This document shows positions 29,862 through 61,848 of a stretch of 64,000 nucleotides of DNA, piece by piece. Below the pieces are notes generated by a model. It was not told where the DNA came from. It did no database searches and was given only the letters and a program-made list of their open reading frames with translations. The DNA comes from Pristiophorus japonicus (lineage: Eukaryota). The DNA is taken from NCBI RefSeq assembly GCF_044704955.1, contig NC_091984.1, forward strand, positions 117,676,001 to 117,740,000, given 5' to 3'. Every line of letters begins with the position of its first letter. Position 1 is the first letter of the stretch. The position numbers and the translations under genes were made by a program.

Positions 29862-32800
29862 TGTCATGTATTCAACCAGCATTGTAACCCATGTATAAAC
29901 TGACCTAAGTTGTACACCGTGAGAACACTGACCACTAGGTGGGAGACACTCCTAACCTGGACCTTCAGGTATAAAAGGGGACGCTCCACCCACCTTCATC
30001 ACTTGAGTGCTAAGGAATAAAGGACAGGTCACAGACTGACCTTCTCTCAAGCATGGGCCTCATGTGCATTTATACTGTGTAGCAAGGATGTATCAATGGC
30101 GACAAGAAACTGGGATTTAAACCACGCGAGCATGGCCACTAGCAGAACAGACGAGAGGTACTGTGTTAAGGAATGGGACAGAGATTCAACATTGTTAAAG
30201 CAGCACACAGTTCTCCAGGCAGACAAGGGCAGTCAGGCATGCCCCAACATGTAGTCGAACCCAGAGGGGGAGTTCAACAGAGACAATGGCAAGCTGAACA
30301 GCGATTCACGCCATTGCAAGGGACAATGCGGCCAGTAATGGGGCCATCAACATTTGTTAATGGTGCACTCAAGGACAATAACAGGGGCAGTCAGGGACGA
30401 TCGACTGGCAAGGGACCTTTTGTTTCAAACCGCAACTCATGCTGGAGGCATGGAGGCATACATTCAGCCGGAGTTTGCAGAGATGAGCAAAATACCTGCA
30501 GAAATTGCAGAAATGGACACTGGGCGAAATCGCTGGAAGCTGAAGTTCAGCGAGTTCATGTGGAGCACGTATACAGTTCATACACCAGGACGCCACCGAT
30601 AATTATGAAAATGCTCCTCAATGGCATCCCAGTATCAATGGAGTTAGACACGGGGGCCAGCCAGTCCCTGATGGGTATCAAACAGTTCAAAAAGTTGTGG
30701 GCATCCAAGGCCAGGTGGCCAAAATTATCGCCGATTGACGCACAGCTATGAACTTACACAAAGCAGATCATTCCGGTGCTAGGCAGCGCCACGGTAGTCG
30801 TGACCCACAAAGATTCGGAGAACAGGTTGCCACTCTGGATTGTCCCGGGGTACGGTCCCGCACTACTGGGGAGGAATTGGCTTGCTGTCATGAACTGGAA
30901 ATGGGGCGATGTCAATGCAATTACCTCTGTGGAGCGAGTATCATGCTCACAGGTCCTGGACAAATTTGACTCATTATTTCAACCCGGCATTGGCACTTTC
31001 ATAAGGGCCAAGGTAGTGATTCACATAAACCCGGACGCCAGACCAGTACACCACAAGGCCAGAGCGGTGCCGTACGTGATGCGGGCAAAGATAGAAGGCG
31101 AATTGGACTGCCTGTTGAGGGAAGGCATCATCTCGCCAGTCGAATTCAGTGACTGGGCGAGCCCGATTGTGCCGGTGCTCAAGGCGGATGGTTCGGTCAG
31201 GATATGTGGCGATTACAAGGCCACCATCAATCGGGTGTCACTCCAAGACCAGTACCCGCTACCGAGAGTGGAGGACCTCTTTGCGACGCTATCCGGTGGC
31301 AAACTTTTTTCAAAATTGGACCTGACCTCAGCTTACATGACCCAGGAGCTGGCAAGTGAGTCAAAGAAGCTGACCACCATCACGACACACAAGGGGTTGT
31401 TTGAGTACAACAGATGTCAGTTCGGGATTCGCTCGGCCGCCGCGATCTTCCAACGAAATATGGAAAACCTCCTCAAGTCGATTCCAGGGACGATGGTTTT
31501 TCAGGACGACATCCTCATTATGGGTTACGATACTGAAGAACACCTCCACAACCTGGAGGAGGTGCTACGCAGACTGGACTGGGTAGGTCTGCGACTGAAA
31601 AAGGCGAAGTGCGTCTTTCTAGCTCCAGAGGTAGAATTCCTGGGGATGAGGGTAGCAGCAGACGGGATCAGCCCTACTGCATCCAAGACGGAAGCGATCC
31701 AGAGAGCACCCAGACCCCATAACACGACGGAGCTGCGTTCGTTCCTGGGGCTCCTGAACTATTTTGGTAACTTCCTTCCCAAATTGAGCACGCTGCTAGA
31801 GCCGCTACACGTGATCCTACGCAAAGGTCGCGAATGGGTCTGGGGGGACAGCCAGGAAAGGGCTTTTAATAGAGCACGCAATTTGTTATGTTCCAACAAT
31901 CTGTTAACGCTATATGATCCATGTAAGAAACTTGTGTTAACGTGCGATGCGTCGTCCTATGGTGTCGGGTGTGTGTTGCAGCATGTCAATGCCAAGGGTC
32001 AGTTACAGCCGGTAGTTTATGCCTCCAGGAGTCTGTCCCAGGCAGAAAGGGGCTACGGGATGGTAGAAAAGGAGGCGCTCGCATGTGTATATGCGGTAAA
32101 GAAAATGCACCAGTACCTGTTTGACAGGAAATTTGAGCTGGAGACAGATCACAAACCCCTAACGTCCCTTTTGGCTGACAACAAGGCCATAAATGCAAAC
32201 GCATCGGCCCGCATACAGAGGTGGGCACTCACGTTAGCTGCCTATGACTACACAATTCGGCACAGACCGGGCATCGAAAACTGCGCCGATGCACTCAGCA
32301 GGCTCCCACTAGCCATCACTGAGGGGGCTACCGAGCATGGTGCTGAGATGGTCATGGCTGTTGAAGCTTTCGGAAGCGAACGCTCACCCGTGACAGCCCG
32401 TCAGATTAAAGTCTGGACAAATAGAGACCCGCTATTGTCTCTAGTCAAGAAATGTGTCCTGAATGGGGACTGGGCAGCCACGTTCAGGGCATGCCCTGCG
32501 AAATTTAAACCATTTCACAGGCGCAAGGATGAACTCTCAATTCAGGCCGATTGCCTACTGTGGGGAAACCATGTAGTCATGCCCCAGATGGGCAGAGAGG
32601 TGTTCATCAGAGAACTCCACAATGGGCACCCGGGCATTGTCACGATGAAGGCAATTGCCAGGTCACACGTTTGGTGGCCAGGGATAGACGCAGATCTGGA
32701 ACTTTGTGTTCGCAGGTGCAACACGTGTGCCCAGCTGGGCCATGTGCCCAGGGAAGCCCCCCTTAGCCCCTGGCCATGGCCCGCCAAGCCTTGGTCACGC

Positions 32801-33975
32801 ATCCATGTGGACTACGCAGGTCCTTTCATGGGGAAAATGTTTTTGGTAGACGCCTACTCCAAATGGATCGAGTGTGACATTTTAAATTCAAGCACATCCT
32901 CTGCCACGGTAGAAAGAATACGGGCAATGTTCGCCGCCCACGGTCTACCGGACATCTTGGTCAGCGACAATGGCCCGTGCTTCACAAGCACTGAATTCCA
33001 GGACTTCATGGCAGGCAATGGAATTAACCATGTTAGAACGGCACCGTTCAAGCCGGCCTCAAACGGCCAGGCAGAACGAGCAGTGCAGATAATCAAACAG
33101 GGGATGCTCAGATTCCAAGGGGGTTCCCTACAAACCCGCTTAGCACGCCTCCTGTTGGCCTATAGATCCCGACCACACTCGCTCACAGGGGTTCCACCCG
33201 CAGAGCTACTAATGAAAAGGATGCTCAAAACCCGGTTATCCATTATACACCCCACCATGAAAGAAATTGTCGAGAGCAGGCGCCAGTCACAATATCGCTA
33301 CCATGACAGGAATGCGAGGGCACGATGTATTGATGTAAATGATCCTGTTTTTGTCCTCAACTACGCTGCAGGGCCGAAATGGCTTGCAGGCACTGTGGTT
33401 GCCAAAGAGGGAAATAGGATTCTGGTAGTTAAACTTACCAATGGACAAATCTGCCGCAAACATGTGGATCAAACAAAAAGGAGGTTCAGCAACCCCATAG
33501 AAGAAGCAGAGGAAGAACATGATATAGAGTTCACTCCACCACAGGTGACCGAACACCGGAACCAAAGGGAGGAGAGCCCAGTCACTGTGGGTTGTCCGGA
33601 CAGGCCTGAGGCACCGCAAACAGCAGACACTCAGGCCTGCGCCCAACAACCGGAGCCCCAACTCAGGTGCTCTACAAGGGAGCGTAAACCACCAGAGAGA
33701 CTCAACCTGTGATCCCAATAAGACTTTGGGGGGGGAGGTGATGTCATGTATTCAACCAGCATTGTAACCCATGTATAAACTGACCTAAGTTGTACACCGT
33801 GAGAACACTGACCACTAGGTGGGAGGCACTCCTAACCTGGACCTTCAGGTATAAAAGGGGAAGCTCCACCCACCTTCATCACTTGAGTGCTAAGGAATAA
33901 AGGACAGGTCACAGACTGACCTTCTCTCAAGCATGGGCCTCGTGTGTATTTATACTGTGTAGCAAGGACGTATCA
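29862..33975 (+). mobile_element. Gypsy LTR retrotransposon copy B (young, gag-deleted)
   Basis: LTRs 29862-30095 and 33742-33975 (TG..CA, 5 differences in 234 bp); TSD CAGAG; PBS TGGCGACAAG; G-rich PPT at 33728-33741. Confidence 0.97.
30173..33712 (+). pseudogene. Gypsy Pol (PR LDTGAS, RT FQDD, RNase H, integrase) with one premature stop
   Basis: ORFs 30173-30751 and 30776-33712 share one frame, separated by a single TGA at 30749-30751 where copy A has an Arg codon. Confidence 0.93.
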
Positions 33976-36157
33976 CAGAGAATATAGGCTCAGTCTACTC
34001 AATCTCTCCTCATAGGACAGGCCTCTCATCCCAGGAATCAATCCAGTGAACCTTTGTTGCATTCCCTCTAAGGCAAGTATATCCTTCCTTAGGTAAGGAG
34101 ACCAAAACTGTACAGAGTAGTCCAGGTGTGGTCTCACCAAAGGCCTATATAAATGCAGCAAGACTTCCTTTCTCTCATATTCCAACCCCCTTGCAATAAA
34201 GGTCAACATACAATTTGCCTTCCTAAATGCTCGCTGTACCTGCATGCTAATTCTCTGTGATTTGTGTACAAGGACACCCAAATCCTTCTGCATATCAACA
34301 ATCAGGCAGTGTTTTAGAATGTAATTTAAAAAAAATGGGCTTTAAAAAATATTCCTTGATATATTTAAGAGTGTTATTTGGCGCAGTTTGATTAACACAG
34401 CTGACAATGGGTTTATCACAAAAATAAATATTTTTAATCAGTGTCAATCCACTACTTGTGAGTAACCCGATTTTATATAACTGTAAAAGACTTTAACCAT
34501 TTGCTATATTGGTGTACAGTAGTCAGTTTCTTGATAAATGAAACAAAATTATATATTCAAAAGCTTTGAAAACGATCCTATTAGTGTCCTTGCGCCGAAA
34601 AAAGTCAGGGTAATTTGAAGAACCTCGTCGAAGGCCAACAAACGGGCGTGATTTGCCAAAATGTGCAATGGTGATTAATTCGATCTGGGGGCATGACCAG
34701 TTTTGTGGGCGGGACCAGATTCTAGCACAATGTTTTTAAAATTAGCGCAAACAATCGTGGAATCTCGATTGGCGCTGGATGTAATTTGCACTCTTTTGCG
34801 CTGGTTTGGCCGATTTTCAGTGAATTGGACTGAAAAACCCCACAAACTAGCGGAAACTCCAGGCCGAATACTTTGATTGTCACCGAAAGAGAAACTTCCA
34901 GGTGGAATGTCAGACAGAGAAAGCAGTTGGTAATATTCCAATCCCACTTCCTTCTGTCTCCATCCATGGCAAAAATTATTCCCTACGTCATTTAAAACTG
35001 CACCTGCAAACTCCTAATTGTCTAGTCTTTGTCCTTCCATTCACCGTGATACTTCTGCAACTGCTGATTTGTGAACCAACATCTCCACCTTTGATGACTT
35101 TGACCCCAGCCAAATTTTAGCCAAACCAGCAGAAGATCTTGCTGGAGCATAACAAGCACTAACCGGTCCCATTCGCCCACTAGTCCAGGATCAACCCGGA
35201 GAGTAAAAGTAAACCCTGGCCTCTTTTGTCCACAACCAATTGTTTTCCCTGCCACCTCTACATTCACTTCCAACAACAAGTGCTAGAACCTTATGGACTT
35301 CTTTGTCACTAAGATTGAGACCATCCATTTAGCTGCCTCTGTTGCTTCCTCCCCTTTCTCTTTCCAACCAAGCCAAACCTCTGTCCAGGGTCCAACTTGC
35401 TCTAGTCCTGACTTTGCGTTTCTCTCTGGTTTCTTTCCCTTTTCCTTCAAGCCCTCTCCGAGGATATCTCATCCATGAGTCCCACCTCCTGCTCCTTTAC
35501 CCCCATTTCCATCAAACTGCTGACCACCCAACTCCACTTCCTGGTTCCCATGCTAGTGGACATTGTAAAAGATGCCCTCTCCTGAAGTATTGTCACCCTC
35601 CCTTCTTAAAAAAAACATCCTTGACCCATTTGTCCCAGTAAACTACTGCCCTTTCCCTTTCCATTCTAAAGTCTTTGAACGTGTCATCGCTTCCCACAAA
35701 TCCATGTTTGAATCTTTGCAATCAGGTTTCCGCCCTGCCACAACACTGAAACGGCCCTAATCAAGGTCACAAATGACATGCACGGGGACTGTGACTACAG
35801 TACACTGTCTCTCCTCATCGCCTTCTCTGTAGGCTTTGACACAGTTGGCCACACCGTCCTCCTCCTCTGTTGTTCAGCTCAGTGGAACATCCCTCACTTG
35901 GTTCCAGTTTTATCAATCAACTTATAGCAATGGTGCTGGATTTTGGGCTTTTTGGATTTTGGGACGTTAATCGTGGCGGGGCATTAAAGTTAGCGCCTGA
36001 AAATAGTTTGCGCCTCCGATTGCAAGTTTTGGCGAAAATGTAAGTTGGAGGAGCGTTGGCGTTAAGTCAGGCATTACACAACGGACTTTGTGCACCTGAG
36101 CCGAAACTTGCGTAAGAAGTCTCATTGTTGTTTAGTGCCCTGCAACATAACATTGTA

Positions 36158-36515
36158 CAGGTTGAACCTCCCTTAACCGGAACCCTCGGGACCTGGCCTG
36201 TTCTGGATAAGGGATTTTTCCGGACGAGGGGTGGTCACGTTAAATTGGGTGGTACAGGTACTGAGCAAGAGGATATTGGGGCTGGCTGGTTTGGGGCTGG
36301 AAGTGCATCAGAGAAATCATGGGGGTGGGTGGGGAGGGGGCGGTAGATCACAGGGACAGGCCAGCGATTGCGGGAGTCGGCAGTGAGGAAGCACTTCAAT
36401 TTGTTCAATTTGTTCATGTTGGAGTTCTACGCATGAGCCACCCTGTTGCCAGGAATGGTTCTGGACGAGTGGTCGTTCTGGATAAGGGAGTTTTGGATAG
36501 GAGAGGTTCAACCTG
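36158..36515. mobile_element. Tc1/mariner-pogo MITE
   Basis: Perfect TIR CAGGTTGAACCTC / GAGGTTCAACCTG flanked by TA on both sides. Confidence 0.9.
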
Positions 36516-39500
36516 TATAGTATATGGTTTTATTTTGGTAGGGGGTGTTTTTGTGACTTTGCTGCAGCAAAATCTATGACTCATCATTTGCCATTGTGTC
36601 TTGTGCATCATTCCAACGTTCACCGGAGATGTGCCTTTATGGGGGCACATAGTGTGTCCAGTATTAGCTCCATCCCTCAGTTTCCTCCATTTAGGAGAAC
36701 CGGTCCATTATGAGCTGGCGACATACGACTGTTGGTCCGGCAGCATCGCCATGCTGCCTCCCCCATGGATGGGGTGGCTATCCAATGGGGGCCTTGCCAG
36801 GCTCCTCTCCATCGTCCTGCTCCTCCTGAGGTGGGCCTGCAATTCCCACTGGCAATGCCTGACCCAACATGATGGCCAAGCACACCAGGCAACATGCAGC
36901 ACACCACAATGAATTTGGATACCTGTTGAGGGGAATATTGAAGGCTGCCTCCAGAGTGGTGCAGGCATGGGTCTGCCTGTAGGAGATGGCATATCTCTGT
37001 CAGCACTTCCTTTCAGAAGTGCAGCCATCTCACACACTGCTCCTCAGAGAGCTGGAGATCTGAGCGTTGGTGCCTGTAAGCCTGCGGGGAGTAAGCCCTC
37101 TTCCTCAGATGTCTTCGATCTCTCATTATCCATGGGCCGACATGGCCAAGAGTCCTTCCTCTAGCTTGACATCGCCTGGCAATAGCATGGAGCATGATAT
37201 GCTGGCAAACTATTAATGGCCCCATTAAATTCTCTCACTAAAGTTGTAAGGGCACTGTAATGGCAGATAAAAGTGAAGTTTTCAAGTTGGAGCTTCACAC
37301 AGCATTATGTGCGCAACGGTTGTAGTCAAAATGACCTAGAAACATAGAAACATAAAAATTAGGTGCAGGAGTAGGCCATTTGACCCTTCGAGCCTGCACC
37401 ACCATTCAATAAGATCATGGCTGATCATTCACATCAGTACCCCTTTCCTGCTTTCTCTCCATACCCCTTGATCCCCTTAGTCATAAGGGCCATATCTAAC
37501 TCCCTCTTGAATATATCCAATGAACTGGCATCAACAACTCTCTGCGGCAGGGAATTCCACAGGTTAACAACTCTCTGAGTGAAGAAGTTTCTCCTCATCT
37601 CAGTCCTAAATGGCCTACCACTTATCCTGCGTCCCCTGGTTCTGGACTTCCCCAACATCGGGAACATTCTACCCTATGGCATCTAACCTGTCCAGTCCCC
37701 TCAGAATCTTATATGTTTCTATGAGATCCCCTCTCATCCTTCTAAACTCCAGTGAATAAAGGCCCAGTTGATCCAGTCTCTCCTCATATGTCAGTCCTGC
37801 CATCCCAGGAATCAGTCTGGTGAACCTTCGCTGCACTCCCTCAATACCAAGAACGTCCTTCCTCAGATTAGGAGACCAAAACTGAACACAATATTCCAGG
37901 TGAGGCCTCACCAAGGCCCTGTACAACTGCAGTAAGACCTCCCTGCTCCTATACACAAATCCCCTAGCTATGAAGGCCAACATACCATTAGCCTTCTTCA
38001 CCACCTGCTGTACCTGTATGGCAACTTTCAATGACTGATGAACCATGACACCTCCCCTTTTCCTAATCTGCCGCCATTCAGATAATACTCTGTCTTCGCG
38101 TTTTTGCCCCCAAAGTGGATAACCTCACATTTATCCACATTATACTGCATCTGCCATGCATTTTCCCATTCACCTAACCTGTCCAAATCACCCGGCAGCC
38201 TCTTAGCATCCCCCTTACAGTTCACACCGCCACCCAATTTAGTGTCATCTGCAAACTTGGAGATATTACACTCAATTCCTTCATCCAAATCATTGATGTA
38301 TATTGTAAAGAGCTGGGGTCCCAGCACTCAACCCTGCGGCACTCCACTAGTCATTGCCTGCCATTCTGAAAAGGACCCGTTTATCCCGACTCTCTGCTTC
38401 CTGTCTGCCAGCCAGTTCCCTATCCACGTCAGTATATTACCCCCAATACCATGTGCTTTGATTTTGCACACCAATCTCTTGTGTGGGACCTTGTCAAAAG
38501 CCTTTTGAAAGTCCAAATACAACACATCCACTGGTTCTCCCTTGTCCGCTCTACTGGTTACATCCTCAAAAAATTCCAGAAGATTTGTCAAGCATGATTT
38601 CCCCTTCATAAATCCATGCTGACTTGGACCGATCCTGTCACTGCTTTCCAAATGCGCTGCTATTTCATCCTTAATAATTGATTCCAACATTTTCCCCACT
38701 ACTGATGTCAGGCTAACCGGTCTATAATTACCCGCTTTCTTTCTCCCTCCCTTTTTAACAAGTGGTGTTACATTAGCTACCCTCCAGTCCATAGGAACTG
38801 ATCCAGAGTTGATAGATTGTTGGAAAATAATCACCAATGCATCCACTATTTCTAGGGCCCCTTCCTTAAATGCTCTGGGATGCAGACTATCAGGTCCTAG
38901 GCATTTATCGGCCTTCAATCCCATCAATTTCCCTAACACAATTTCCCGCCTAATAAGGATATCCTTCAGTTCCTCTGTCGAAATCTCGACCTCAGAAAAG
39001 AATGACTCCGACACTTACAGCTCCGATAGAAGTTTCCCTTTTAATTTACTTGCTCGCAAGGGGTAGGTTTCACTCAGTCAAGGGCTAAATGAACACCTCC
39101 GCAATGGTACAGCTTCACAAGATATTTATACAGTAAAACCCAAGTTCTGGCCTCTCCCTGTGTATTGCTCTGTCTCACAGTCAGTGAATACAGATAAAGA
39201 GTTAATTACTATATCCTGGTCCTGACATGGTGTCAAGATATTTCCTTTTGTCAGGGTTATCAGAAAGCCAAACGGCCATTACTCCATGAGTCATAGGTAA
39301 TGGGCTATCACCTGTCTTGTATTGTGTCAGGATTATCCAATTTCCTGGTCAGTTTACCTGTTTGCTTCAAATGGATGAGGTAAAGGAAAGAGATAATGGC
39401 TAGAAGATAAGGGTGGGGTGACATGGAACTCCTGTAGTGTAGACAATAGGAGAGCACCATGGGGGGTTACTTGTCTCAGCATGACTTGTCTCCTAGCTGT

Positions 39501-39683
39501 CTGATAACCATCAGCCATCTAACAGCAGGTTTAGCTGTTTATGCAAGCTGGCTGCTAAAATGCAGAAAGTTCTGGAAGGGCCAGGACTCCATTTTAATCA
39601 AAAGGCACACAAATACCGTATGGTATCAGCTTAGATAAAAATACTTTTCCACATTCCCCCATTTTGTCCTTCACAAGGACAAC

Positions 39684-40900
39684 TCAATCCATTCTGATCT
39701 TGTACAGTCTCTCCATTTCCATTTCTACACAAGAGCCTTCAGCAGTTGTTGCTACCATAACTCTAGCCGTGGTCTCGGTAGGTAACATAGTTTCTCCAAC
39801 CCTGGCACAGCAACACTTAATGACGACAAATAATAGATACAGGGCGAAGACTATCAGCAGGAATATGATCAAACCCTGTACCACAGATTTCCCCAGGGCT
39901 CCCAACCATCCTGATGCCCAACCCCACAAGGTGATACCGTCCTGGCCAACTGTCTGTTTATACTCTATTACCTTTTTCCTGATTTATCCCTTCAAAGGCT
40001 TGGGAAGTTGCTGATTCTACTAAGTTAGCCAGTTCCCGTAACTGCCATTCGGTCGATGCTATTCCATAGGGTGGCACCATTACCTTGAATATTCCGTTTA
40101 GCCACGTCAAATCCCGTTTAAATCTGTGGCTTCCATAGGCCTCCCTTAGAGTCCTTACTGATCTGATAAGGGGTACCACATATCCTAAGTAACAGGACCC
40201 TGTCCAGTTGGCTGGTAACCATGGGTAGGCTTTATGGCCACAAATAAAGTAGGTGCAATTATAGGACGTCAGCTCCTGGTCCTTTCGCACTGTCCCTACT
40301 CGAGTGGTCTCACCTTCCCACCCTTCACCTGGGGCTTTGTTATGGACCGTTGTCCAGCCAACGGTTGCTATCTTTCTCTCAGTGGGATTAGTTGTGGCTT
40401 GCCATTTAATCATTTGGGAACACTTGCTGCGTCCCATTTCTGGTCCTTTTGTCTCATTACTCACTAGGCATATTATACCCTCAGGATTTCTTATTCTGGG
40501 AGTAATGCTTAGGAAGGGAGGCTGATGGTTATTATCATAATTGGGCTGGTACCATCCCTGGAAGGCTGTAAGTTTATACCCTGCCGACCTCCATTCTGTT
40601 TGCTCCTTCGTTTCTGGCCCCTTAGTTAGTTTTGTCCTGTTTTGCACTGTCAACCATTCTACCATTTCTGATTCGTTAAAGGGGACGGATCTCAGGGGAA
40701 TACCCCCCTGGAGTGGACAGGTACATGGGAACATATCCAACAACTCGACAAGTTTCTTTCTTGAGCATACCTATGACTCAGTGCCATAAATACGTTTACG
40801 TGCAATTCCCTTCGGTGGTGGGTCTGTACCCCTGGTGTAATCAATAATGCGAAGTAAAACCCTGTCAAGCCCAGCACCATCAGTCCCCATAGTCCATACA
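39684..40900 (-). pseudogene. ERV env remnant (gamma-type)
   Basis: Hydrophobic leader, CWIC (CXXC), WLPANWTGSCYLG, furin site RFKR, fusion peptide, TM anchor; ISD/CX6CC region absent; frameshifted. Confidence 0.85.
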
Positions 40901-40909
40901 GTTCCTTAT

Positions 40910-50016: not shown

Positions 50017-50165
50017 TATCAGGCATGCGGACGATGTGGCCCATCCATCGGAGCTGATTGAGTGTGGTCAATGCTTCGATGCTAGGGATGTTGGCCTGAT
50101 CGAGAAGACTGACGTTAGTGTGCCTTACCTGCTAATGGATTTGCAGGATCTTGCGGAGGCATCGT

Positions 50166-50576
50166 CAGTGAGAACACCACCGCAGGTCGGGGCTATAAAT
50201 AGAGCTGGAGCGCCGGGCCCTGGAACATCGTGGCGGAGGTGCAGCGAATGAGGGTACGGGACCCAGAATAGCCAAGGGCCCAGGGGCAGCACGGGCCAGC
50301 CCACACTGTGATATGTGTGCGCACTAGGTCCGTGCAGCAGATCAGGTCTTCAGTCGTCCCGGTTCATCTTTGCCACTGGATAAAGGCCTAGCTCTGTCAA
50401 GCCTTTGTGGTGGCTGATGTGCAACAGTCACCACATGTTAAAAAAATTCACGCACAGGCATCTTCCACATCCTCAACTAGAGTTCAGGACTGGAACATCG
50501 GGTCCTTCATTGAAACATCTGTGAACTCATGTGGAAGCAAGTCATCCTTGTTCAAGGGACCGCCTATGATGATGAC
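50166..50576 (+). mobile_element. Non-autonomous bipartite RTE derivative (SINE-like)
   Basis: Matches the RTE 5' UTR and ORF start (reverse of 53350-53660) fused to the RTE 3' tail CGCCTATGATGATGA. Confidence 0.7.
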
Positions 50577-50652
50577 TTCTCCAGTACTCTGAGGTGCCTG
50601 CTGTACATAGTCCATGTCTCTGAAGCATATAGGAGGGCGGGTATCACTCACT

Positions 50653-50958
50653 CATCATCATCATCATCATAGGCAGTCCCTCGAAATTGAGGAAGACTTG
50701 TTTCCACTCTAAAAGTGAGTTCTCAGGTGGCTGTACAGTCCAATGCGGGAATTAATCTCTGTAATAGGTGGGGCAGACAGTCATTGGAGGAAAGGGAGGG
50801 TGGGGAGTCTCGTTTGCTGCATGCTCCTTCCTTTGTCTGCGCTTGGTTTCCTGATGCTCTCGGCGATGAAACCAGTGGTGCTCAGCGCCCTCCTGGATGC
50901 TCTTCCTCCACTTTGGGTGGTCTCTGGCCAGGGATTCCCAGGTGCTGGTGGGGATCTG
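50653..50958 (-). mobile_element. Short RTE 3'-end copy inserted in the RTE
   Basis: (TCA)n tail at 50653-50670; similar to 48245-48520. Confidence 0.7.
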
Positions 50959-53684
50959 TCATCGACGTCTGCCCTTGTTGACAGTAGGCTCCCGAGGTAT
51001 GGAAAATGGTCCATGTTGTCCAAGGTCTTGTCATGGATTTTGATAATCGGGGGGCAGTACTGTGTGCTGGGGGTAGGTTGGTAGAGGATCTTTGTCTTAT
51101 GGATGTTTAGTGTAAAGCCCATGCTCTCGTACACTTCGGTGAAGGTGTTGATGATAATTTGGAGTTCGGCCTCCGAGTGTGCGCAGACACAGGTGTCGTC
51201 TGCATACTGTAATTCAATGCCAGAGGGTGGGACGACCTTGGATCTGGACTGGAGGTGACAGAGGTTGAAGAGTTTCCCGTTTGTTCTGTAGATTAGCTCC
51301 ACTCCAGCGGGGTGCTCACTGAGGGTGAGATGGAGCATTGCAGCAAGGAAGATCGAGAAGAGCGTTAATGCGATGACACAGCCTTGCTTGACCCCGGTCC
51401 GTACATGAATTGGGTCTGTGGTGGATCCGTTGGTCAGGTTTACATGTCATCGTGAAGCAGGCGGAGGATGGTGACAAACATTTGCGGGCAATTGAATTTG
51501 AGGACACTCCATAATCCATCACGGTTGACAGTGTTGAAGGTCTTTGTGAGGTCAAAGGCCATTTACAGAAGTTGGTGCTGCTCCCTACATTTCTCTTGAA
51601 TTTGATGCGCAGTGATGATCATGTTCACTGTGCCCCTAAGTGGGCGGAATCCGCATTGCGACTCTGGGAGGAGCTCTTCAGCCACTGGGAGACGGTGATT
51701 GAGGAGGGTTCTTGTGGCAGACAGCAGAGAGACTCCTCCGTCATTACCGCAATCGGACTTGTCACCTTTCTTGAAGATGGTCACGATTGCGGTGTCTCTG
51801 AGATCTCCTGGCATGTTCTCCCCTTCCAAATAAGAGAAATGAGTTCATGGATTCATGCCAGTAGTGCTTCTCCGCCATGCTTTAGTGCTTCGGCAGGGAT
51901 TCCAGCTGCTCCTGAGGTCTTGTTGTTCTTTCAACCTCATGCTGGACTGGGGTTGTGCTGAGGTGATGGCGAGTAGCATGCTGCGGGATGGAGTCGAGGA
52001 CATTCACGTCGAAGACAGAGTCTCGGTTAAGAAGATCTTCGAAGTGTTTCTTCCAGCGGGCCCTAACTGCCTCACTGTCCTTGGTGAGCACCTCTCTGCT
52101 CTTGGCCCTCAGTGGGGTAGGACCTTGGGTGCTTGGGCCGTAGGTAGCCTTGACTGTGCTAAAGAATCCACACACGTCATGGTTGTCGGCTATTTGCTGG
52201 ATCTCCTCTGCTTTCTCCACCCACCATCTATTCTTTTGGTCGTGAGTTTTTTATTGGACTTCGGCCTTCAGACAGCTATAGAGCTGCTTTCTTGCTCTCG
52301 AGTTGTGTTGCTGTTCCCAGTTCAAGAATGCCTTGTGCTTACGACTTATTAGCTCCTGGATCTCCTGGTCATTCTTGTCGTGCCAGTCTTGGTGTTTCCT
52401 GGTCGGGTGACCGAGCGTCACTTCACAGGTGCTAATTATGGAGGCCTTGAAGGCAGACCAGGCACTGTGGACACTCTTCATCTTTGGATCACTGGGAGTC
52501 ATCAGGTTGGTTGTGAGGCACTGGCTGAATAGGGCTTTCTTAGCAGGGTCTTTAAGTGATCCAGTGTTGATTTTCCTGCAGAATTGTTTCTGTTGCCGCT
52601 GCTGTTTTGGGACTACATTGATGGAGATGACAGAATGGATTAGGCGGTGGTCCGTTCAACAGTTGTCCACTCCTGTCATGTGCATGTCCTTGCGGTCCCT
52701 CGCTCGGACAATGACGTAGTCTAGCAGATGCCAGTGCTTGGAGCAAAAGTGTTGCCATGAGGCCTTGTATTTGTCTTTCTGATGGAACAAGGTGTTGGTT
52801 ATGACAAGATCATGTTGTAAGCATTTCATCAGGAGGAGGGTACCGTCGGGGTTGGCTTTCCCTACCCCCTCTCTGCCGATCACACCTCCCCTGAGGTCTG
52901 TGTCCTTTCCAACTCTGGCGTTAAAGTCACCAAGAAGAATCAGCTTGTCGCCCGGTGGGGCTCGGGTCAGGGATTGATCAAGGCTGGAGTAGAATTCCTC
53001 TTTGGTCTCATCTGTAGCTTCCAGTGTTAGGGCGAACGCACTGCTGACTGTAGCGCACTAGTTCTGGGCTAGGGTGAGCCGAAGGGTCATGAGGAGTTTG
53101 TTTATCCCACAAGGGAGTCTCTGAGACGGCCAACTAGTTCATTTTTTATGGCGAAGCCCACCCCATGGAAGTGGCGTTCTTCTTCTGGTTTACTTTTCCA
53201 GAAGAAGGTGTAACCATCACCTTGTTCCTTGAGCTGGCCTTCCCCTGCCCTCTGAGTCTCGCTTAGAGTGGCGATGTCTACATCGTAACGTCTGAGTTCC
53301 TGGGCAATGATAGCGGTGTGGCCTTCCGGTCTGTTGCTGTTGGGGTTGTCCATGAGGGTCCTGACGTTCCAGGTCCCGAACTTCATTTTAAAGGATGGAA
53401 AAAGTCTATGCGGGAATTTTTTTAACGTGGGGTGGACGTTGCACACCAGCCACCACACGGGTTCAGCAAAGCAAAATCTTGGTCCAGTGGCAAGGGGATC
53501 CAAGATGTCTGGAAACCAGGCTCCACTGCATGGGCCTCGTTCATACACACACACATACTCCCACTGCCCTCCTTCCCACAGGTCCTCTCTCTCTGGGACT
53601 TATAGGACCTCGCTGTTGGCCCGTACTGTTCCTTCCCTGGGCCCCGACCCCACTGCTGGTCCATGCTGCGACACTCCTGGGCCC

Positions 53685-54110
53685 TGACCTCACCGCTCCC
53701 GAACTCCGCTTCCGACCTCTGGACCTTGGCTCTCCTGGCCTCCGCTCCTCGCCGCTCCCGACCTTCGAACCTCGCCACTTCCGACCTCTGCTCCCGACCT
53801 CCGCTTCCGATCTCTGGACCTCGTCGTTCCCGGCCTCCGCTCCTTGCAGCTCCTGACCTTCGGACCTCGCCGCACCCAACCTCCGCTCCCGACCTCTGGA
53901 CCTCACCGTTCCTGACCTCCGCTCCCAACTTCTGGACCTTGCCACTCCCGACCTCCTCTCCCAACCTCTGGACCTCGCCGCTCCCGACCGTTGGACCTCG
54001 CCGCCCCCAACCTCCGCTCCCGACCTCCGCTCCTGGCCTCCGCTCCTCGCTGCTCCTGACCTCAGCTCCTCACTGGACCTGATCTCCGGACCTCACCGTT
54101 CCTCCCGCCG
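53685..54110. repeat. GC-rich degenerate tandem repeat (CCTCCGCTCCCGA / CCTCTGGA units)
   Basis: Directly visible; lies upstream of the RTE ORF on minus. Confidence 0.85.
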
Positions 54111-56403
54111 CTGGGCTTGAGCTTGCTCCAAGATACGCCACCAACCTGGTCGTCACCCTTCAATTTTGTCGGCCTCTCTGGTTGGCTTGCGCTTCTCCCT
54201 GCAATGGCTAGCTCCTGGTGTCTCCCACCAGGTTTGGTCGGTGCCATGCTGAGTCCTGGGGCACTGCTCTTCTTATCCCCGGTGTTGCTCCTGGTGTCTT
54301 CAACCAGGTCGGCTCGGCACTGTTCGATTTACAAGTATGATTTACGAGGATGTTGCCAGGACTGAAGGATTTTAGCTATGAGGAAAGATTGGATAAGCTG
54401 GGGTTGTTTTCTTTGGAATAGAGGATGATAAAGGGAGATTTAATTGAGGTGTATAAAATTATAAGGGGCCTGGATAGAATGGATAGGAAGGACATATTTC
54501 CCTTAACAGAGAGGTCAATAACCAGGAGCATAGGTTTAAAGTAATTGGTAGAAAGATTAAAGGGGAGTTGAGAAGAATTATTTTTACCCAGAGGGTTGTG
54601 GGGTTATGGAACTCATTGCTGGAAAAAGGGTGGTAGAGGCAGAAACGCTCATCACATTTAAAAAGTAGTTGGATGTGGACGTGAGGTTTCATAACTGTTG
54701 TATATGTATACGATAGATATACTCTCTGTGTAGTCACTGTATAGTTGCATAAGATGGAGACTTGTTTACCAGATGTACCATCATCAAGGCTCACACTGTA
54801 TACACTATGCTGGCACCACCAGAGGGTGCAACTGGTGGAGGCCCAGGGGTCACCTGTACACCACAGGTACCCAGGTATAAAAGGGAGTCCACCATGTGGT
54901 ATCCTCACTCAGGAGTTACTTTAAATGGATTATGGACTTTCACGCGAAAATGGCTAACCTTGGTACGTTGCAGCATTTCGCCGATGGTGATGATTGGGAC
55001 ACCTTTGTGGAGAGGCTCGACCATTTCTTCACAGCAAATGACCTGGCAGGTGATGATCCGGCCACACTGGCTGATAACGCAGAGCTATCCTGCTCACCAG
55101 TTGTGGGCCCACAGTCTATGGCCTCGTCAGGGATTTGCTGGCACCAGCGAAGACAATGACCAAGACGTACGAGGAGCTTGTAACACTGATCCAAGAACAA
55201 GTCAAGCCCAAAGAGAGCATCCTCACAGCCAGACACCGGTTTTACACCCACTGACGGCCTGAAGGCCAGGAAATCGCGAAATATGCTGCAGACCTCAGGA
55301 GGCTGGCGGCACCGTGTGATTTCGGCGAACACCTCACCGAAGCACTGCGGAATATCTTTGTCATCGGAATCGGCCATGAGGGCCTTCTTCACAGGTTACT
55401 ATCTGCAGATACCACAGTCACACTGCAGAAGGCCATCACCGTGAGCCAGGCATTCATGATCTCGATCTGCGGCTCCAGGCGGATGACTCATCCTCAGGAC
55501 TCAGACCCGGCAAGTACTGTACACAGACTGGCACCTTTTAGAGGCAGGACTGTAGAACGTAAATCTCCTCAGGGGAGAGAGAACAAGTCCCTGAGTCCGT
55601 TAACTCTGAGTCCGCTGAAGGGGGCTAATCGGTTAGTGTCATGCTGGCATTGCGGAGGAAATCACCGGGCTCACGTGCTGTTTTAAAGACTATGTGTGCA
55701 AAGGGTGCAGCACAAAGGGCCACTTCCAGTGAATGTGGAAAAGAAATAGGATTCACTGTGTTGATGAAGAGTCTGCAGAGGGCCATGAATCCAGCGCGGA
55801 TTATGAAGAAGTGGTCAGAGAGGCAGCTCAACCCCACGATGAGGTGTGCGGAATGTTTAGCTGCACCCCAGAATGTTCCCCGTTGAGAATGGAAGTCGAG
55901 ATAAACGGCGTTCCAGTCTTCATGGAAGTGGACACGGGGGCGCACCAGTCAGTAATGAATCAAGAAGCCTTTGAGAGGCCATGGGACAATCAAACCGAAC
56001 GACCCAAATTGGTCCCAGTTCAAGCTAAACTGCTCACCCGCACCAATGAACTTATCCCAGTCGTTGGTAGTGCGGATGTAAAGGTACTCCATGATGGTGC
56101 GGTGCACAAGTTCCCACTGTGGATTGCTGCAAGGGATGGACCAACGCTACTCGGAGGAAGGTGGATGGAGAAGATCCATTGGAGCTGGGAAGATTTCATC
56201 CCTCCAGCGATCAATGTCCCCCATGCTCAGAGGTAAAACAAGCCCCCACCTGAGGTTGGACCCGGCACTAGAGAGCAGACTAGCACAGCACCCGAGGCGC
56301 AGACTGCTCAGCATGACTGCGTGGCGATGATCCAGCTGAGACGACCTGAACGCACCTTCCAGGCTCCAGTGGCAGGACACAGGAGGAAGAAAATTGGATC
56401 CAA

Positions 56404-59400
56404 AGGTAAAAAATGGGATGAGGTCCTACAAGAAGAATTTAGGGAGCTAGAAGCTAAATTAAAAAGTAGGATCTCAAAGGTAGTAATCTCAGGATTGCTA
56501 TCAGTGTCACATGCTAGTCAGAGTAGGAATAGCAGAATAGTTCAGATGAATACGTGGCTTGAGGAATGGTGCAGAAGGGAGGGATTCAAATTCCTTGGAC
56601 ATTGGAACCGGTTCTGGGGGAGGTGGGACCAGTACAAACCAGACAGTCTGCACCTGGGCAGGACCGGAACCAATGTCCTCGGGGGAGTATTTGCTAGTGC
56701 TGTTGGGGAGGAGTTAAACTAATATGGCAGGGGGATGGGAACCGATGCAGGGAAACAGAGGGAAGTAGAATGGGGGCAGAAGCAAAAGATATAAAGAAGA
56801 AAAGTAAAAGTGGAGGGCAGAGAAACCCAAGGCAAAAAGCAAAAAAGGCCACATTACACCAAAATTCTAAAGGGGAAAAGCGTGTTAAAAAGACAAGCGT
56901 GAAGGCTCTGTGCCTCAATGCGAGGAGTATTTGTAATAAGGTGGACGAATTAACTGCGCAGGCAGCAATTAACGAATATGATGTAATTGGCATCACAGAG
57001 ACATGGTTCCAGGGTGACCAAGGCTGGGAACTCAACATCCAGGGGTATTCAACATTCAGGAAGGATAGACAGAAAGGAAAAGGAGGTGGGGTGGTGAAGC
57101 TGGTTAAAGAAGAAATTAACTCAATAGTAAGGAAGGACATTAGCTTGGATGATGTGCAATCGGTATGGGTGGATTATGGAATACCAAAGGGCAGAAAATG
57201 TTAGTGAGAGTTGTGTACAGACCACCAAACAGTAGTAGTGAGGTTGGGGACAGCATCAAACAAGAAATTAGGGATGCATGCAATAAAGATGCAGCAGTTA
57301 TCATGGACGACTTTAATCTACATATAGATTGGTCTAACCAAACTGGTAGCAATGCGGTGGAGGAGGATTTTGTGGAGCGTATTAGGGATGGTTTTCTGAA
57401 CCAATATGTTGAGGAACCAACTAGAGGGCTGGCCATCCTAGACTGGGTGATGTGAAACGAGAAAGGATTAATTAGCAATCTTGTTGTGCAAGGTCCCTTG
57501 GGGAAGAGTGACCATAATATGGTAGAATTCTTTATTAAGATGGAGAATGACACAGTTAATTCAGAGACGAGGGTCCTAAACTTAAAGGAAGGTAACGTGG
57601 ATGGTATGAGACGTGAATTGGCTAGAATAGACTGGCGAATGATACTTAAAGGGTTGACGGTGGATAGGCAATGGCAAACATTTAAAGATCACATGGATGA
57701 ACTTCAATTGTACATCCCTGTCTGGCGTAAAAATAAAACGGGGAAGATGCCTCAACCGTGGTTACCAAGGGAAATTAAGGATAGTGTTAGACCCAAGGAA
57801 GAGGCATATAAATTGGCCAGAAAAAGCAGCAAACCTGAGGACTGGGAGAAATTTAGAATTCAGCAGAGGAGGACAAAGGGTTTAATTAGGAGGGGGAAAA
57901 TAGAGTAAGAGAGGAAGCTTGCTGGGAACATAAAAACTGACTGCAAAAGCTTCTATAGATATGTGAAGAGAAAAAGATTAGTGAAGACACACGTAAGTCC
58001 CTTGCAGTCAGAATCAGGTGAATTTATAATGGAGAACAAAGAAATGGCAGACCAGTTGAACAAATACTTTGGTTCTGTCTTCACGAAGGAAGACACAAAT
58101 AACCTTTCGGAAATACTAGGGGACCGAGGATCTAGTGAGAAGCAGGAACTGAATGAAATCCTTATTAGGCATGAAATTGTGTTAGGGAAATTGATGGGAT
58201 TAAAGGCCGATAAATCCCCGGGGCCTGATGGTCTGCATCCCAGAGTACTTAAGGAAGTGGCCCTAGAAATAGTGGATGCATTGGTGATCATTTTCCAACA
58301 GTCCATCTACTCTGGATCAGTTCCTATGGACTGGAGGGTAGCTAATGTAACCCCACTTTTTAAAAAAAGAGGGAGAGAGAAAATAGGTAATTATAGACCG
58401 GTTAACCTGACATCAGTAGTGGGGAAAATGTTGGAATCAATTATTAGAGATTAAATAGCAGCGCATTTGGAAAGTAGTGACAGGTTTGGTCCAAGTCAGC
58501 ATGGATTTATGAAAGGGAAATCATGCTTGACAAATCTTCTAGAATTTTTTGAGGATGTAACTAGTAGAGTGGACAAGGAAGAACCAGTGGACGTGGTGTA
58601 TTTGGACTTTCAAAAGGCTTTTGACAAGGTCCCACACAAGAGATTGGTGTGCAAAATTAAAGCACATGATATTGTACTGATATGGATAGAGAACTGGTTG
58701 GCAGACAGGAAACAGAGAGTCGGGATAAACGGATCCTTTTCAGAATGGCAGGCAGTGACTCGTGGGGTGCCGCAGGGCTCAGTGCTGGGACCCCAGCTAT
58801 TTACAATATACATTAATGATGTAGATGAAGGAATTGAATGTAATATAGTCAAGTTTGCGGATGACACTAAGTTGGGTGGCGGTGTGAGCTGTGAGGAGGA
58901 CGCAGGGTGACTTGGACAGGTTAGGCAGATGCAGTTTAATGTGGATAAATATGAGGTTTCTACTTTGGTGGCAAAAACACGAAGGCAGAATATTATCTGA
59001 ATGGCGGCAGATTAGGAAAAGGGGAGGTGCAACGAGACCTGGATGTCATGGTACATCAGTCATTGAAAGTTGGCATGCTGGTACAGTAGGTGGTGAAGAA
59101 GGCAAATGGTATGTTGGCCTTCATAGTTAGAGGATTTGAGTATAGGAGCAGGTTGATCTTACTGCAGTTGTACAGGGCCTTGGTGAGGCCTCACCTGGAA
59201 TATTGTGTTCAGTTTTGGCCTCCTAATCTGAGGAAGGACGTTCTTGCTATTGAGGGAATGCAGTGAAGGTTCACCAGACTGATTCCTGGGATGGCAGGAC
59301 TGACATATGAGGAGAGACTGGATCGACTGGGCCTGTATTCACTGGATGAGAGGGGATCTCACAGAAGCATATAAAATTCTAACGGGACTGGACAGGTTAG

Positions 59401-59742
59401 ATGCAGGAAGCATTTTCCCGATGTTGGGAAGTCCAGAACCAGGGGTCACAGTCTAAGGATAAGTGGTAAGCCATTTAGGACTGAGATGAGGAGAAACTTC
59501 TTCACTCAGAGAGTTGTTAACCTGTGGAATTCCCTACCGCAGAGAGTTGTTGATGTCAGTTCATTGGATATATTCAAGAGGGAGTTGGATATGGCCCTTA
59601 CGGCTAAAAGGATCAAGGGGTATGAAGAGAAAGCAGGAAAGGGGTACTGAGGTGAATGATCAGCCATGATCTTATTGAATGGTGGTGCAGGCTCGAAGAG
59701 CCGAATGGCCTACTCCTGCACCTATTTTCTATGTTTCTATGT
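56404..59742 (+). mobile_element. CR1 LINE (ORF1 esterase end plus ORF2) inserted in Gypsy copy C
   Basis: Same family as 37337-47170; tail CTATGTTTCTATG at about 59740. Confidence 0.95.
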
Positions 59743-60980
59743 TCCCAGCTTCGGTGGCAGAACCCGGGGAGAAGAGGATCACAGCAGCCGACATTGTGGA
59801 TGGAAGAAAGATGGCACCCAAACCACGAGGTGAAGCGCTGAAGAAAAAGATGGTGGCGGCCAGACCACGAGGTGCAGTGCTGATGGAGCAACACGTGGTA
59901 CCAAGTGAAGAAGAGGATTGGGGTAAAGATAGCAAGGCTCTCTTAAAGGAGTCCAGCAACCCACCCCACTTAAAGGGACAGTCCCACATTCTCACTCAAT
60001 GTAATAACTATGAGCCAAATGTAAAGCTTGTAACTAATGATCAGAATTTTATACATGTAATAAGCAAAGAAAAGTCAGGCGATTGCGATCGGAGCTACAG
60101 TTTATCCACAATAAACAATAAAACGTTGTGCGATGTTAGATTTCCACTGTATTCTGATATTGTAGCAGGCAAACACCCATCGGGAGCACACAGGTCCAGT
60201 GGGCTGCCCAATGCTGTAGCCTGCGTCCCTGGGACCAGAATGATGCACCATGGAGTATGGCCACAAGCAGCTAATATAGACAAGCTGCAGAGCAAGCGAT
60301 CTCAGGAAGACAACAGCACTGGTATCGATACCCTGCCTCTGATCGGCTCCACCTCCCAGGCACCCGATGGCACCAACTGCCACGAGCCCGAAAGTGCAAA
60401 CTGCGCTAAGGCGCAGCCCCCAGACTCTATCGCCACCAAGGCTACAGCCGGGAACGAAGGGTCACCCGCAATGGTTCTCCCAAATGGGACCGGGACCAGC
60501 CAGGATCCCAAACCAAATAACGCCCAGGCAAGCGCACTGCTAGACGACTGCTCCTCTGGGAGCAGCAGCGGTCCGGGGTGTAAGGAAAGGACAGGGATGT
60601 CACAGGCATTTGTCCAGTTGCCCACCACCCGGGTGGAGACAGCGCGGCCCCCAGACCCAGTTACCACGGCCAGGTCCGGGAGCGAAAGGTCAGAACCAAC
60701 GAGTTCCCCAAACGGGACCTGGAACAGCCAAGTTCCCACAACCGTTCAAGAGCAGGCAGAAGACTCTGCAGCCCTCAAAGAAGGACAGGGAGACCACACA
60801 CATCTGTGGCTCTGCCCACCACTAGGCAATGGCAAAGGCCCTGTGTCCTGGCAAGGTGACCGAACCAAGTCCACTCTGCTAGCTGGGGGCACAGCGCGCC
60901 ATCAGACGACTAGGACCCCGTTCAGTTGCTCTGGAACTAGCGTCCTCGCATACCTGCACCTACCCAATCCAGGTGCATGA
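59742..60980 (+). CDS. Unknown S/T/P/A-rich ORF (about 410 codons) internal to copy C
   Basis: Stop-free part of ORF 59679-60980 after the CR1 tail; no recognisable domain; expression unknown. Confidence 0.4.
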   Translation, partial: FPASVAEPGEKRITAADIVDGRKMAPKPRGEALKKKMVAARPRGAVLMEQHVVPSEEEDWGKDSKALLKESSNPPHLKGQSHILTQCNNYEPNVKLVTNDQNFIHVISKEKSGDCDRSYSLSTINNKTLCDVRFPLYSDIVAGKHPSGAHRSSGLPNAVACVPGTRMMHHGVWPQAANIDKLQSKRSQEDNSTGIDTLPLIGSTSQAPDGTNCHEPESANCAKAQPPDSIATKATAGNEGSPAMVLPNGTGTSQDPKPNNAQASALLDDCSSGSSSGPGCKERTGMSQAFVQLPTTRVETARPPDPVTTARSGSERSEPTSSPNGTWNSQVPTTVQEQAEDSAALKEGQGDHTHLWLCPPLGNGKGPVSWQGDRTKSTLLAGGTARHQTTRTPFSCSGTSVLAYLHLPNPGA

Positions 60981-61848
60981 CTGTAAAATGCAATGAATGT
61001 ATCTCACCAGTCAAATGTACTTGCCTCACAACTGTACCACAAATGCAATGATGTAAATGCAAATTTCCTTTTGTGGACTTGAACGTATATGAATGTATCT
61101 GAATGTGATGAGCCACCGGCATGAGCTACATATGGTGAGGGGGCGGGGAAATGGATCTATGTGGCCATGGACACACATGGATCACACCCAGAACCCACTG
61201 AAGCCCCATTGCATCATCGAACCATCCCAACTGGTTACCACTACCCAACGTTGTGGCAATAAGGACTTGGGGTTGACAGGGAGAGAGCCAAGCCAAAACA
61301 CAGCCAAGGTGCAAGGGCTATTGGCACTTAGGTCTTGGGAAAGCTAAGCCAGAGCACATAGTGCAAAGGTAATTGGCACAAAAGACTTGGGGGCGAGTGA
61401 TGTTGTATATGCAGACTATACATATACTCTCTGTGTAGTCACTGTATAGTTGCATAAGATGGATACTTGTTTACCAGATGTACCATCAAGAAGGTTCACG
61501 CTGTATACACTATGTTGGCACCACCAGAGGTTGCAACTGGTGGAGGCCCAGGGGTCACCTGTACACCACAGGTACCCAGATATAAAAGGGAGTCCACCAT
61601 GTGGTGTCGTCACTCAGGAGTTAGATTAAATGGACGAAGGTCACTACAGTACAAGTACAATACCTTGTCTTGTGGAGTCATTATCAGAGCATCTAAAGAC
61701 ATAACAATAACCTACAGGGCTACAGACCAACGGGCCAAAACTCAGCCTCTTGAAAAGGCCTCTTACCACTGGAACGCGGCGACCAAGTGCCGGAGTCGAG
61801 TGGCCGCCGCCAGCAGAATTGTCCTCGGGGTTTTTTTGCAGCGGTGCT

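Follow-up and report, generated by a model that had tools for sequence, protein, structure and literature searches.

The window, that is, the whole 64,000-nt stretch of sawshark (Pristiophorus japonicus) DNA analysed here, carries three LTR retrotransposon copies, A, B and C, with the following features.

2869..7379, + strand: copy A, full-length gag-pol element of B's family (LTRs 2869-3115 and 7133-7379; TSD CTTTG; LTR K2P 0.086)
29862..33975, + strand: copy B, capsid-less member (TSD CAGAG at 29857-29861 and 33976-33980)
29862..30095, + strand: 5' LTR of B
30097..30106, + strand: primer-binding site (PBS) of B, TGGCGAC-type, present in 44 of 70 related loci
30132..30176, + strand: gag AUG and first codons of B with the double deletion junction (capsid domain removed)
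30179..30589, + strand: gag linker/nucleocapsid remnant of B; an in-frame 90-nt deletion near 30510 took the second zinc knuckle
30590..33712, + strand: pol of B (PR-RT-RH-IN), single frame; one stop, 30749; integrase shortened in frame by 6 nt near 32846
33720..33741, + strand: polypurine tract (PPT)/LTR junction motif of B, common to A, B and C
33742..33975, + strand: 3' LTR of B (LTR K2P 0.022)
54696..61706, + strand: copy C, Gag-protease plus a degenerate remnant of pol (TSD ATAAC at 54691-54695 and 61707-61711)
54696..54929, + strand: 5' LTR of C, truncated after insertion, with its final 72 nt and the PBS gone (LTR K2P 0.072)
54950..56236, + strand: gag-protease of C; two frameshifts, two stops (55252 and 55730), end of frame at 56234
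56237..56403, + strand: post-protease remnant of C, aligning with residues 62-95 of protein P0001 as far as the LINE
56404..59743, + strand: LINE inside C, 3.3 kb, with 88-89% identity to its other copies within the window
59745..60980, + strand: ORF X of C, 411 open codons; homologue P0001 (40% over 375 aa)
61382..61400, + strand: PPT/LTR junction motif of C
61401..61706, + strand: 3' LTR of C, 306 nt, complete

Copies A and B are Ty3/Gypsy LTR retrotransposons, with the PR-RT-RH-IN order, paired LTRs and a TSD. Their best match among solved structures was Ty3 Gag-Pol, the closest proteins are labelled K02A2.6-like, and the nearest long relative is 54% identical. This family may belong to the Mag lineage, a label consistent with the K02A2.6-like protein names. 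Copy A is decayed and has its own 197-nt deletion in RNase H. The insertion site of copy B is an older LINE fragment.

The LTRs of copy B are 234 nt long and 97.9% identical. Alignment with copy A showed that the gag of B carries three deletions of 51, 455 and 90 nt, by which the capsid part is gone, and a profile search placed the Pfam domains of RT, RNase H and integrase all in one frame. The initial annotation, which described B as an element without capsid but with PR-RT-RH-IN in one frame, was right on these two points; however, the stop at 30749 lies inside the protease, and the pol frame is out of frame with B's own gag AUG. Compared with A, the pol of B has no large deletion and few extra amino-acid changes; the private changes of B were 18 non-synonymous and 2 synonymous among the 20 pol-frame sites listed. 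By eye, the large gag deletion is flanked in copy A by a 5-nt repeat. Splicing was considered as the origin of the deletions and rejected by eye, as their ends in the A-B alignment are not GT..AG.

The double deletion of B was found in 12 to 44 contigs per table row and run. These counts come from contigs of runs X1-X4, all of a single sample that may be the source of the window itself, and contig depth should not be read as copy number. In X1, the loose end behind 30176 was seen in 44 contigs and that before 30174 in 22; the indel row at 30173 had 23, 13, 13 and 12 contigs in X1-X4, respectively, with summed depths of 4343, 27,749, 27,749 and 27,412 against 7.5-15.5 for the unique flank. In the commonest B-type junction of this sample, the gag start is in frame with pol. 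The contigs continuing into full gag numbered 73, 53, 54 and 43 in X1-X4, respectively, and the junction depth was 0.2-2.2% of the pol depth (all depth at the junction base, 8-14%). Gag-bearing relatives dominate, and the B-type is a minority of its family.

Copy C was said to keep Gag and protease, and both are present, but with two stops and two frameshifts. Its Gag is homologous to that of A, as had been proposed, the capsids being 47% identical over 108 aa. The paired LTRs and exact 5-bp TSDs noted earlier for both copies were confirmed for both TSDs and for the LTRs of B, but the 5' LTR of C has lost its end. The statement that C has no recognisable RT, RNase H or integrase needs revision: no functional RT or integrase is there, but ORF X aligns collinearly with residues 343-546 of B pol. 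Profile tests of ORF X against pol were weak (hhalign 4.8%; by hmmsearch, P0001 scored E 0.02 and X itself gave nothing), and the pol match of the post-protease piece before the LINE was not significant alone. Judging from the alignment, ORF X is probably a degenerate RT-thumb/RNase H/tether remnant of pol. At the DNA level, the 3' half of C showed no similarity to B pol above shuffles save one 37-nt match (score 30 against a best of 29 in 30 shuffles), which we took as chance. No integrase remnant was found in C; the part behind the LINE matched 1 of 122 pol queries, in RNase H only. A search of the ESM Atlas with ORF X gave no usable match, and a second PPT-like stretch near 61243-61272 was not significant (193 of 1000 shuffles). 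The LINE, which is presumably CR1-like, was rejected as the deleter of C's pol, since P0001 runs unbroken over the insertion site, leaving roughly one codon unexplained.

C-type proteins recur in the sawshark proteome. P0001 is continuous from the protease end into ORF X over the LINE site, thus repeating the protease-to-X join of C, and is the sole C-type protein showing post-protease sequence. P0002, 53-63% identical to C, ends just past the protease, and P0003, P0128 and P0129 are further relatives. The C-type forms its own clade (FastTree support 0.99 for capsid and 0.84 for protease), its neighbours being the A/B family and a third family, with gag and RT, of the same proteome; in the capsid tree this third family is as close to C as the A/B family is. 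In the relatives P0005 and P0133, gag and pol share a single frame. The initial annotation's idea that both defective types propagated as families therefore stood, and for neither type were the deletion junctions unique to these loci.

The divergence between the LTRs of C is similar to that of A (Fisher p=0.61) and differs from that of B (p=0.023), with one copy each; copy C thus matches A in age (7-9%) and is older than B (2%). Between the pol genes of A and B, dN was 0.053 and dS 0.187 (dN/dS 0.28), values that describe the whole A-B path and not the capsid-less branch alone. The dN expected from decay, given the LTR ages of A and B, was 0.054. Because the observed dN is about what this decay accounts for, we believe that the lineages between A and B kept Pol under selection.

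The PPT/LTR junction motif common to B and C, which had been pointed out before, is a likeness beyond chance: its score was reached by 0 of 1000 shuffles, and neither GTGA|TG nor AAGACTT occurred in any of the 17 different junctions taken from related elements. The TATA region of C matches that of A and B alike (0 of 1000 shuffles). Copy A also carries every cis signal common to B and C, so these ends indicate A no less than B. The LTR 3' ends of B and C are alike, as claimed, but this is a generic likeness: judging by eye, among 27 distinct LTR ends from related metagenomic elements, at least 4 match the last 10 nt of C as well as or better than B does. We therefore discarded the LTR 3' ends, and likewise the PBS, which is of a widespread type, as signs of a partnership.

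We believe that B and C are probably defunct members of two distinct non-autonomous families, each of which relies on complete elements rather than on the other family. Such elements would be single-ORF gag-pol Ty3/Gypsy retrotransposons, namely the family of copy A and at least one more; copy A itself is broken and older than B. The B-type would have been derived from the A family by deletion of the capsid domain, its common form would yield a capsid-less Pol fusion, and it may take its capsid from a sibling. The C-type appears to be an older sister lineage that kept Gag-protease and lost the RT core and integrase, while the rest of its pol seemingly decayed yet stayed open; it would need RT and integrase from a complete relative. 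The common PPT, TATA region and leader could come from shared ancestry and the same kind of RT/RNase H. A helper common to both types, as suggested earlier, is plausible. Since complete relatives are far commoner, they are for each type a likelier source of the missing functions than the other type is.

It is also possible, with less weight than the above, that the open frames were kept for translation itself, through RNA stability or another cis effect, and not for their enzymes, B-type Pol being a passenger and ORF X an end state. ORF X has stayed open over 411 codons (by chance about 1e-7) with its protein sequence decayed, the B-type gag deletions are in frame, and in mouse IAP 1Δ1 the fusion, also in frame, works in cis (PMC6466679). 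However, the intact length of B pol and its few excess changes against A do not look like those of a passenger, and in C a stop separates the protease from ORF X, P0002 also stopping after the protease. This explanation is compatible with dependence on complete elements and differs only in the role of B-type Pol.

A three-way cooperation, in which C-type transcripts give surplus Gag to single-frame complete elements and to capsid-less ones, seems unlikely to us. Relatives with single-frame gag-pol do exist, the C-type has split into subfamilies with Gag-protease kept (P0002 among them), and a like role has been proposed, not shown, for wheat Quinta and Sabrina and for TR-GAG (PMC9744471, PMC11302176, PMC4350172). 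However, packaging of its own RNA in cis would explain the retention of gag equally well. More doubtful still is that C-type Gag fed the in-frame capsid-less B-type Pol so that for a period the two replicated mutually, with or without complete elements, which would make this a vertebrate retrotransposon nearing segmentation.

The initial annotation went further and proposed a segmented retrotransposon in which the B-type gives Pol, the C-type gives Gag, and both are maintained without complete elements. We consider this very improbable. Both types are multi-copy, their coding capacities complement each other, the PPT junction motif is specific, and the commonest B-type junction is in frame; however, full-gag relatives far outnumber the junction form, copy A has the same cis signals, the capsids of C and A share only 47% identity, the third family is equally near to C in the capsid tree, and C is of A's age and older than B (one copy each). 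That B and C are merely single copies decayed after insertion is hardly credible, and for the defining deletions it is contradicted by the junction contigs, 12-44 distinct ones with depths hundreds to thousands of times that of unique sequence, which one locus could not give, and by the join repeated in P0001; it holds for later damage in each copy, such as A's 197-nt deletion, the LTR/PBS loss and LINE of C, and the private changes of B.

LTR families without Gag, or with Gag alone, are known chiefly from cereals, and here both defective kinds surround a single, very abundant Gypsy group of a vertebrate. The unusual details are an in-frame capsid deletion with all of pol kept and a pol that seemingly decayed while open. 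The mainly open-access literature searched held no account of the shark system or of a demonstrated obligate gag-only/pol-only pair. In the order PR-RT-RH-IN and in single-frame gag-pol, the group resembles Ty3/Gypsy elements of the Mag lineage, which is described in PMC6238403 and to which the family may belong. BARE-2 of barley (PMC3735527, PMC4350172) is a multi-copy element that has a conserved Gag-abolishing deletion by which the gag start codon is lost; it keeps pol, is packaged in particles of an autonomous sibling, and outnumbers BARE-1. Similarly, the B-type is multi-copy and keeps pol, its gag lesion is common to many copies (one sample), and a gag-bearing sibling is present in copy A; B-type RNA may be packaged in sibling particles. 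In contrast to BARE-2, the B-type is a shark Gypsy element that retains the gag start codon, in frame with pol, and makes up only a minor part of its family. In mouse IAP 1Δ1, which is non-autonomous yet amplified, an internal deletion made an in-frame gag-pol fusion (PMC6466679), and the B-type is likewise an amplified vertebrate LTR element with an in-frame fusion; IAP 1Δ1 is an ERV derivative missing part of gag and pol, whereas the B-type has the whole of PR-RT-RH-IN.

For the C-type, the counterparts are RLG_Sabrina_SA/WHAM and RLG_Quinta of wheat and TR-GAG, which carry Gag or Gag-protease only and are described as long-lived and diversified (PMC9744471, PMC11302176, PMC4350172). Like Sabrina_SA and Quinta, the C-type has several copies, keeps Gag-protease and has no functional RT or integrase, and as these elements share cis motifs with an autonomous partner, C has the PPT junction and the TATA region in common with both A and B. 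The unexplained domain after gag in RLG_Quinta may be compared with the extra frame of C. TR-GAG is defined as shorter than 4 kb with gag only and no protease similarity, whereas C has a protease. For the plant elements a partner has been identified or proposed in these sources, whereas C lies in a vertebrate, its extra frame is apparently decayed pol, and it has two candidate partner families. With its many copies and datable LTRs, the sawshark genome could test whether Gag-only elements are donors or parasites, roles that the plant papers cited here only propose.

A capsid-less, pol-keeping Gypsy form (B-type) and a Gag-protease form (C-type) are each present in multiple copies. The common B-type junction preserves the reading frame, and relatives with full gag are abundant. 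The copies representing the two forms have the following features:

29862-33975: copy B, with target-site duplication (TSD) CAGAG and LTRs differing at 5/234 sites
54696-61706: copy C, with TSD ATAAC
54950-56236: gag-protease of copy C, with two frameshifts and two internal stops
56404-59743: LINE inserted in copy C

The internal part of copy B was 91.5% identical to copy A, its full-length gag-pol relative. Compared with A, B carried three deletions in gag (51, 455 and 90 nt), and its integrase was 6 nt shorter through a further deletion; the RNase H of A had its own 197-nt deletion. The RT, RNase H and integrase of B share one frame according to Pfam, and the best solved-structure match of B pol was Ty3 Gag-Pol. 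The RT active-site motif was FQDD in B (31500-31511) and identical in A; the usual motif is YxDD. The initial annotation described B as lacking capsid Gag but as encoding protease, RT, RNase H and integrase within a single frame. The capsid loss and the shared frame stood, but the pol frame has a stop within the protease at 30749, and the gag start and the pol frame are out of frame with each other; therefore, copy B is dead. Among the 40 differences listed, with 556 others falling outside the listing, 18 of the 20 private changes of B in the pol frame were non-synonymous, and A had the majority state at 19 of these 20 sites. These changes are consistent with neutral decay following insertion.

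Contigs from four DNA runs (X1-X4), all of one sample, were mapped on 26200-33740. The depths of the unique flank pieces and the pol bins were 7.5-15.5 and 1.2-2.0 million, respectively, where contig depth is not copy number. The A/B family is clearly very large. Its pol depth (29862-33740) was about 80,000-245,000 times the unique depth in contigs, a ratio inflated by contig overlap, and the family may be a major component of the Pristiophorus japonicus genome. The 51- and 455-nt gag deletions together were represented in X1 by a loose end behind 30176 in 44 contigs and before 30174 in 22, and by an indel row at 30173 in 23, 13, 13 and 12 contigs of X1-X4, respectively, with a depth about 300-3700 times the unique depth. 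Because such contig numbers and depth are impossible from one locus, the double gag deletion is multi-copy. Chance would not make two adjacent deletions co-recur. In this one sample, the B-type had thus propagated as a family, as first proposed. The common junction differs from that of B by a short indel and is open in frame from the gag start through the linker into pol; the reading frame of the linker was confirmed by the related protein P0227. The 90-nt gag deletion of B is in frame. The full gag at 30167 was continued into by 73, 53, 54 and 43 contigs in the four runs, and undeleted forms were also present at the 90-nt and 6-nt deletion sites. The junction form accounted for 0.2-2.2% of pol depth, with the total depth at the junction base being 8-14%. 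The full-gag contigs and the low junction share count against a dominant role of the capsid-less form. Further internal deletions were observed among the family contigs within 30142-32748 (for example, 30142 to 30376 and 30810 to 30880), and additional deletion subfamilies may exist. The LTR repeat accounts for contig joints that lead from the 3' end to 29862.

Copy C had been credited with paired LTRs and an exact TSD. The TSD was retained, but the LTR pairing is partial: the 3' LTR has 306 nt, of which the 5' LTR corresponds to just the first 234, and no PBS remains. Because reverse transcription yields identical LTRs, this loss was post-insertion. At 61283-61379, immediately 5' of the C PPT, a unit of about 45 nt is imperfectly duplicated in tandem. 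ORF X, located 3' of the LINE, has 411 open codons (random-opening probability about 1e-7) and no Pfam match. Among 7999 scored candidates, protein P0001 was its sole homologue (40% over 375 aa), relative to which ORF X has about 70 extra, duplication-like residues. P0001 begins at the protease end, matches C on either side of the LINE and runs on into ORF X. Because P0001 spans the site, the LINE took out no pol from C and is ruled out as the cause of pol loss, and the protease-to-X join is present in a second copy. P0002 is a Gag-protease protein 53-63% identical to C that terminates just past the protease, and P0128 and P0129 are additional relatives. FastTree trees were built from 24 capsid sequences (P0175 was left out for its short overlap) and 23 protease sequences. 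The C-type sequences formed a clade (support 0.99 for capsid and 0.84 for protease) nested in a shark group (0.95 and 0.87, respectively) that also contained A/B and one further (third) family. In this third family, P0136 is in frame from gag to the RT start, and P0131 covers this stretch with a frame change. The join, the relatives and the clade agree with the proposal that the C-type propagated as a family. The third family was placed beside C in the capsid tree (0.82) and beside A/B in the protease tree (0.85); C is thus a sister lineage, with A/B and the third family as candidate helpers.

Of 122 pol queries, B pol alone matched C 3' of the LINE (E 0.001). In collinear alignments, ORF X covered B pol 343-546 and P0001 covered 280-560, which correspond to the RT thumb, RNase H and tether. 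With two matrices, 1/1000 and 0/1000 shuffles of the window reached the ORF X score, and 0/1000 and 0/1000 reached that of P0001; B pol outscored all 120 other relatives. Profile tests were weak (hhalign 4.8%; hmmsearch E 0.02 for P0001 and no match for ORF X), the pre-LINE piece did not reach significance by itself, and comparison of C with pol at the DNA level gave no convincing match. We believe that ORF X is probably a decayed pol without RT core and integrase. C was originally reported to have no recognisable RT, RNase H or integrase; this holds for the RT core and integrase, but not for the probable RT-thumb/RNase H remnant.

Between A and B, dN and dS were 0.053 and 0.187 over 957 pol codons, and 0.132 and 0.232 in the nucleocapsid remnant, respectively. 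Half of the summed LTR distances of A and B was 0.054, so amino-acid change in pol is close to the decay expectation and synonymous change is in excess. The codon comparison indicates that Pol was conserved somewhere along the whole A-B path, before and/or after capsid loss. The LTR K2P distances of A, C and B were 0.086, 0.072 and 0.022, respectively, one copy each being too few to define activity periods; likewise for single copies, p was 0.023 for B against C, 0.003 for B against A and 0.61 for A against C.

The window contains three Gypsy-type LTR elements, several LINE copies and one endogenous retrovirus. The closest named relatives of the C proteins were UniRef entries labelled Pristiophorus japonicus (sawshark). 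Part of the C protease frame matched P0003 at 81%, a gene model labelled sialyltransferase-like that starts with a C-type protease fragment, which would be either mis-annotation or an exonised element. The retrovirus (38975-45384, minus strand) is young and sits inside a LINE. It has Pfam matches to RNase H and integrase and a weak env-like match; its 3' LTR is about 680 nt long, of which the 5' LTR matches just 197 nt, with 1/197 sites differing. No frame for gag or the RT core could be recognised, and the chosen borders showed no evident TSD. A different, more GC-rich LINE (50314-54100) has Pfam RT and endonuclease matches. It includes a repeat array (53635-54100), and its segments 50314-50513 and 53349-53549 resemble each other in inverted orientation. 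Directly 3' of C, a long G-poor tandem array (61458-63642; units of about 10 and 20 nt) gives rise to spurious long ORFs.

Of 70 related metagenomic loci, the 37 with matches reaching near the pol end were scanned, and PPT junctions were obtained from 26 (17 distinct). The LTR start TGT was present in 16 of these 17, and GTGA|TG or AAGACTT in none. The likeness of B and C beat 1000/1000 shuffles for both the PPT junction and the TATA region, and 990 for the leader. The PBS type of B occurred in 44/70 loci; PBS type and LTR 3' end are generic features. Copy A has the same junction, TATA and leader signals. The junction and LTR 3' ends had been taken to tie B to C: the junction, like the TATA and leader signals, is specific, yet common to A as well, and the LTR 3' end lends no such tie. 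The leader motif just 5' of the gag start in A, B and C (30123-30136 in B, 54941-54954 in C; 10/1000 shuffles) is a candidate packaging or dimerisation signal.

We propose that B-type RNA would give a capsid-less Pol fusion entering particles made of sibling Gag, one possibility being entry by binding its own RNA. C-type RNA would give its own Gag-protease, with a complete relative supplying RT and integrase. Alternatively, the frames may stay open for the sake of translation alone, which would account for the in-frame B-type deletion and ORF X together. Single-frame gag-pol has been described as creating a need for additional Gag (PMC3735527, in the part consulted), so the C-type as Gag donor is conceivable. 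That B and C supply each other as a segmented retrotransposon is unlikely, given the abundant full-gag relatives and the same cis signals in A.

In the main texts searched, this shark system was not reported. In the parts of the sources consulted, BARE-2 RNA is packaged within BARE1 particles (PMC3735527, PMC4350172), a functional likeness to B, with packaging seen in BARE-2 and conjectural in B. Similarly, IAP 1Δ1, a cis-acting in-frame fusion (PMC6466679), resembles B. Passages on Sabrina_SA (PMC9744471) and Quinta (PMC11302176) describe elements functionally like C. A passage of PMC4350172 had already proposed Gag-only elements as drivers of gag-less elements. The B-type and C-type are real, multi-copy forms and a variant of kinds already known.
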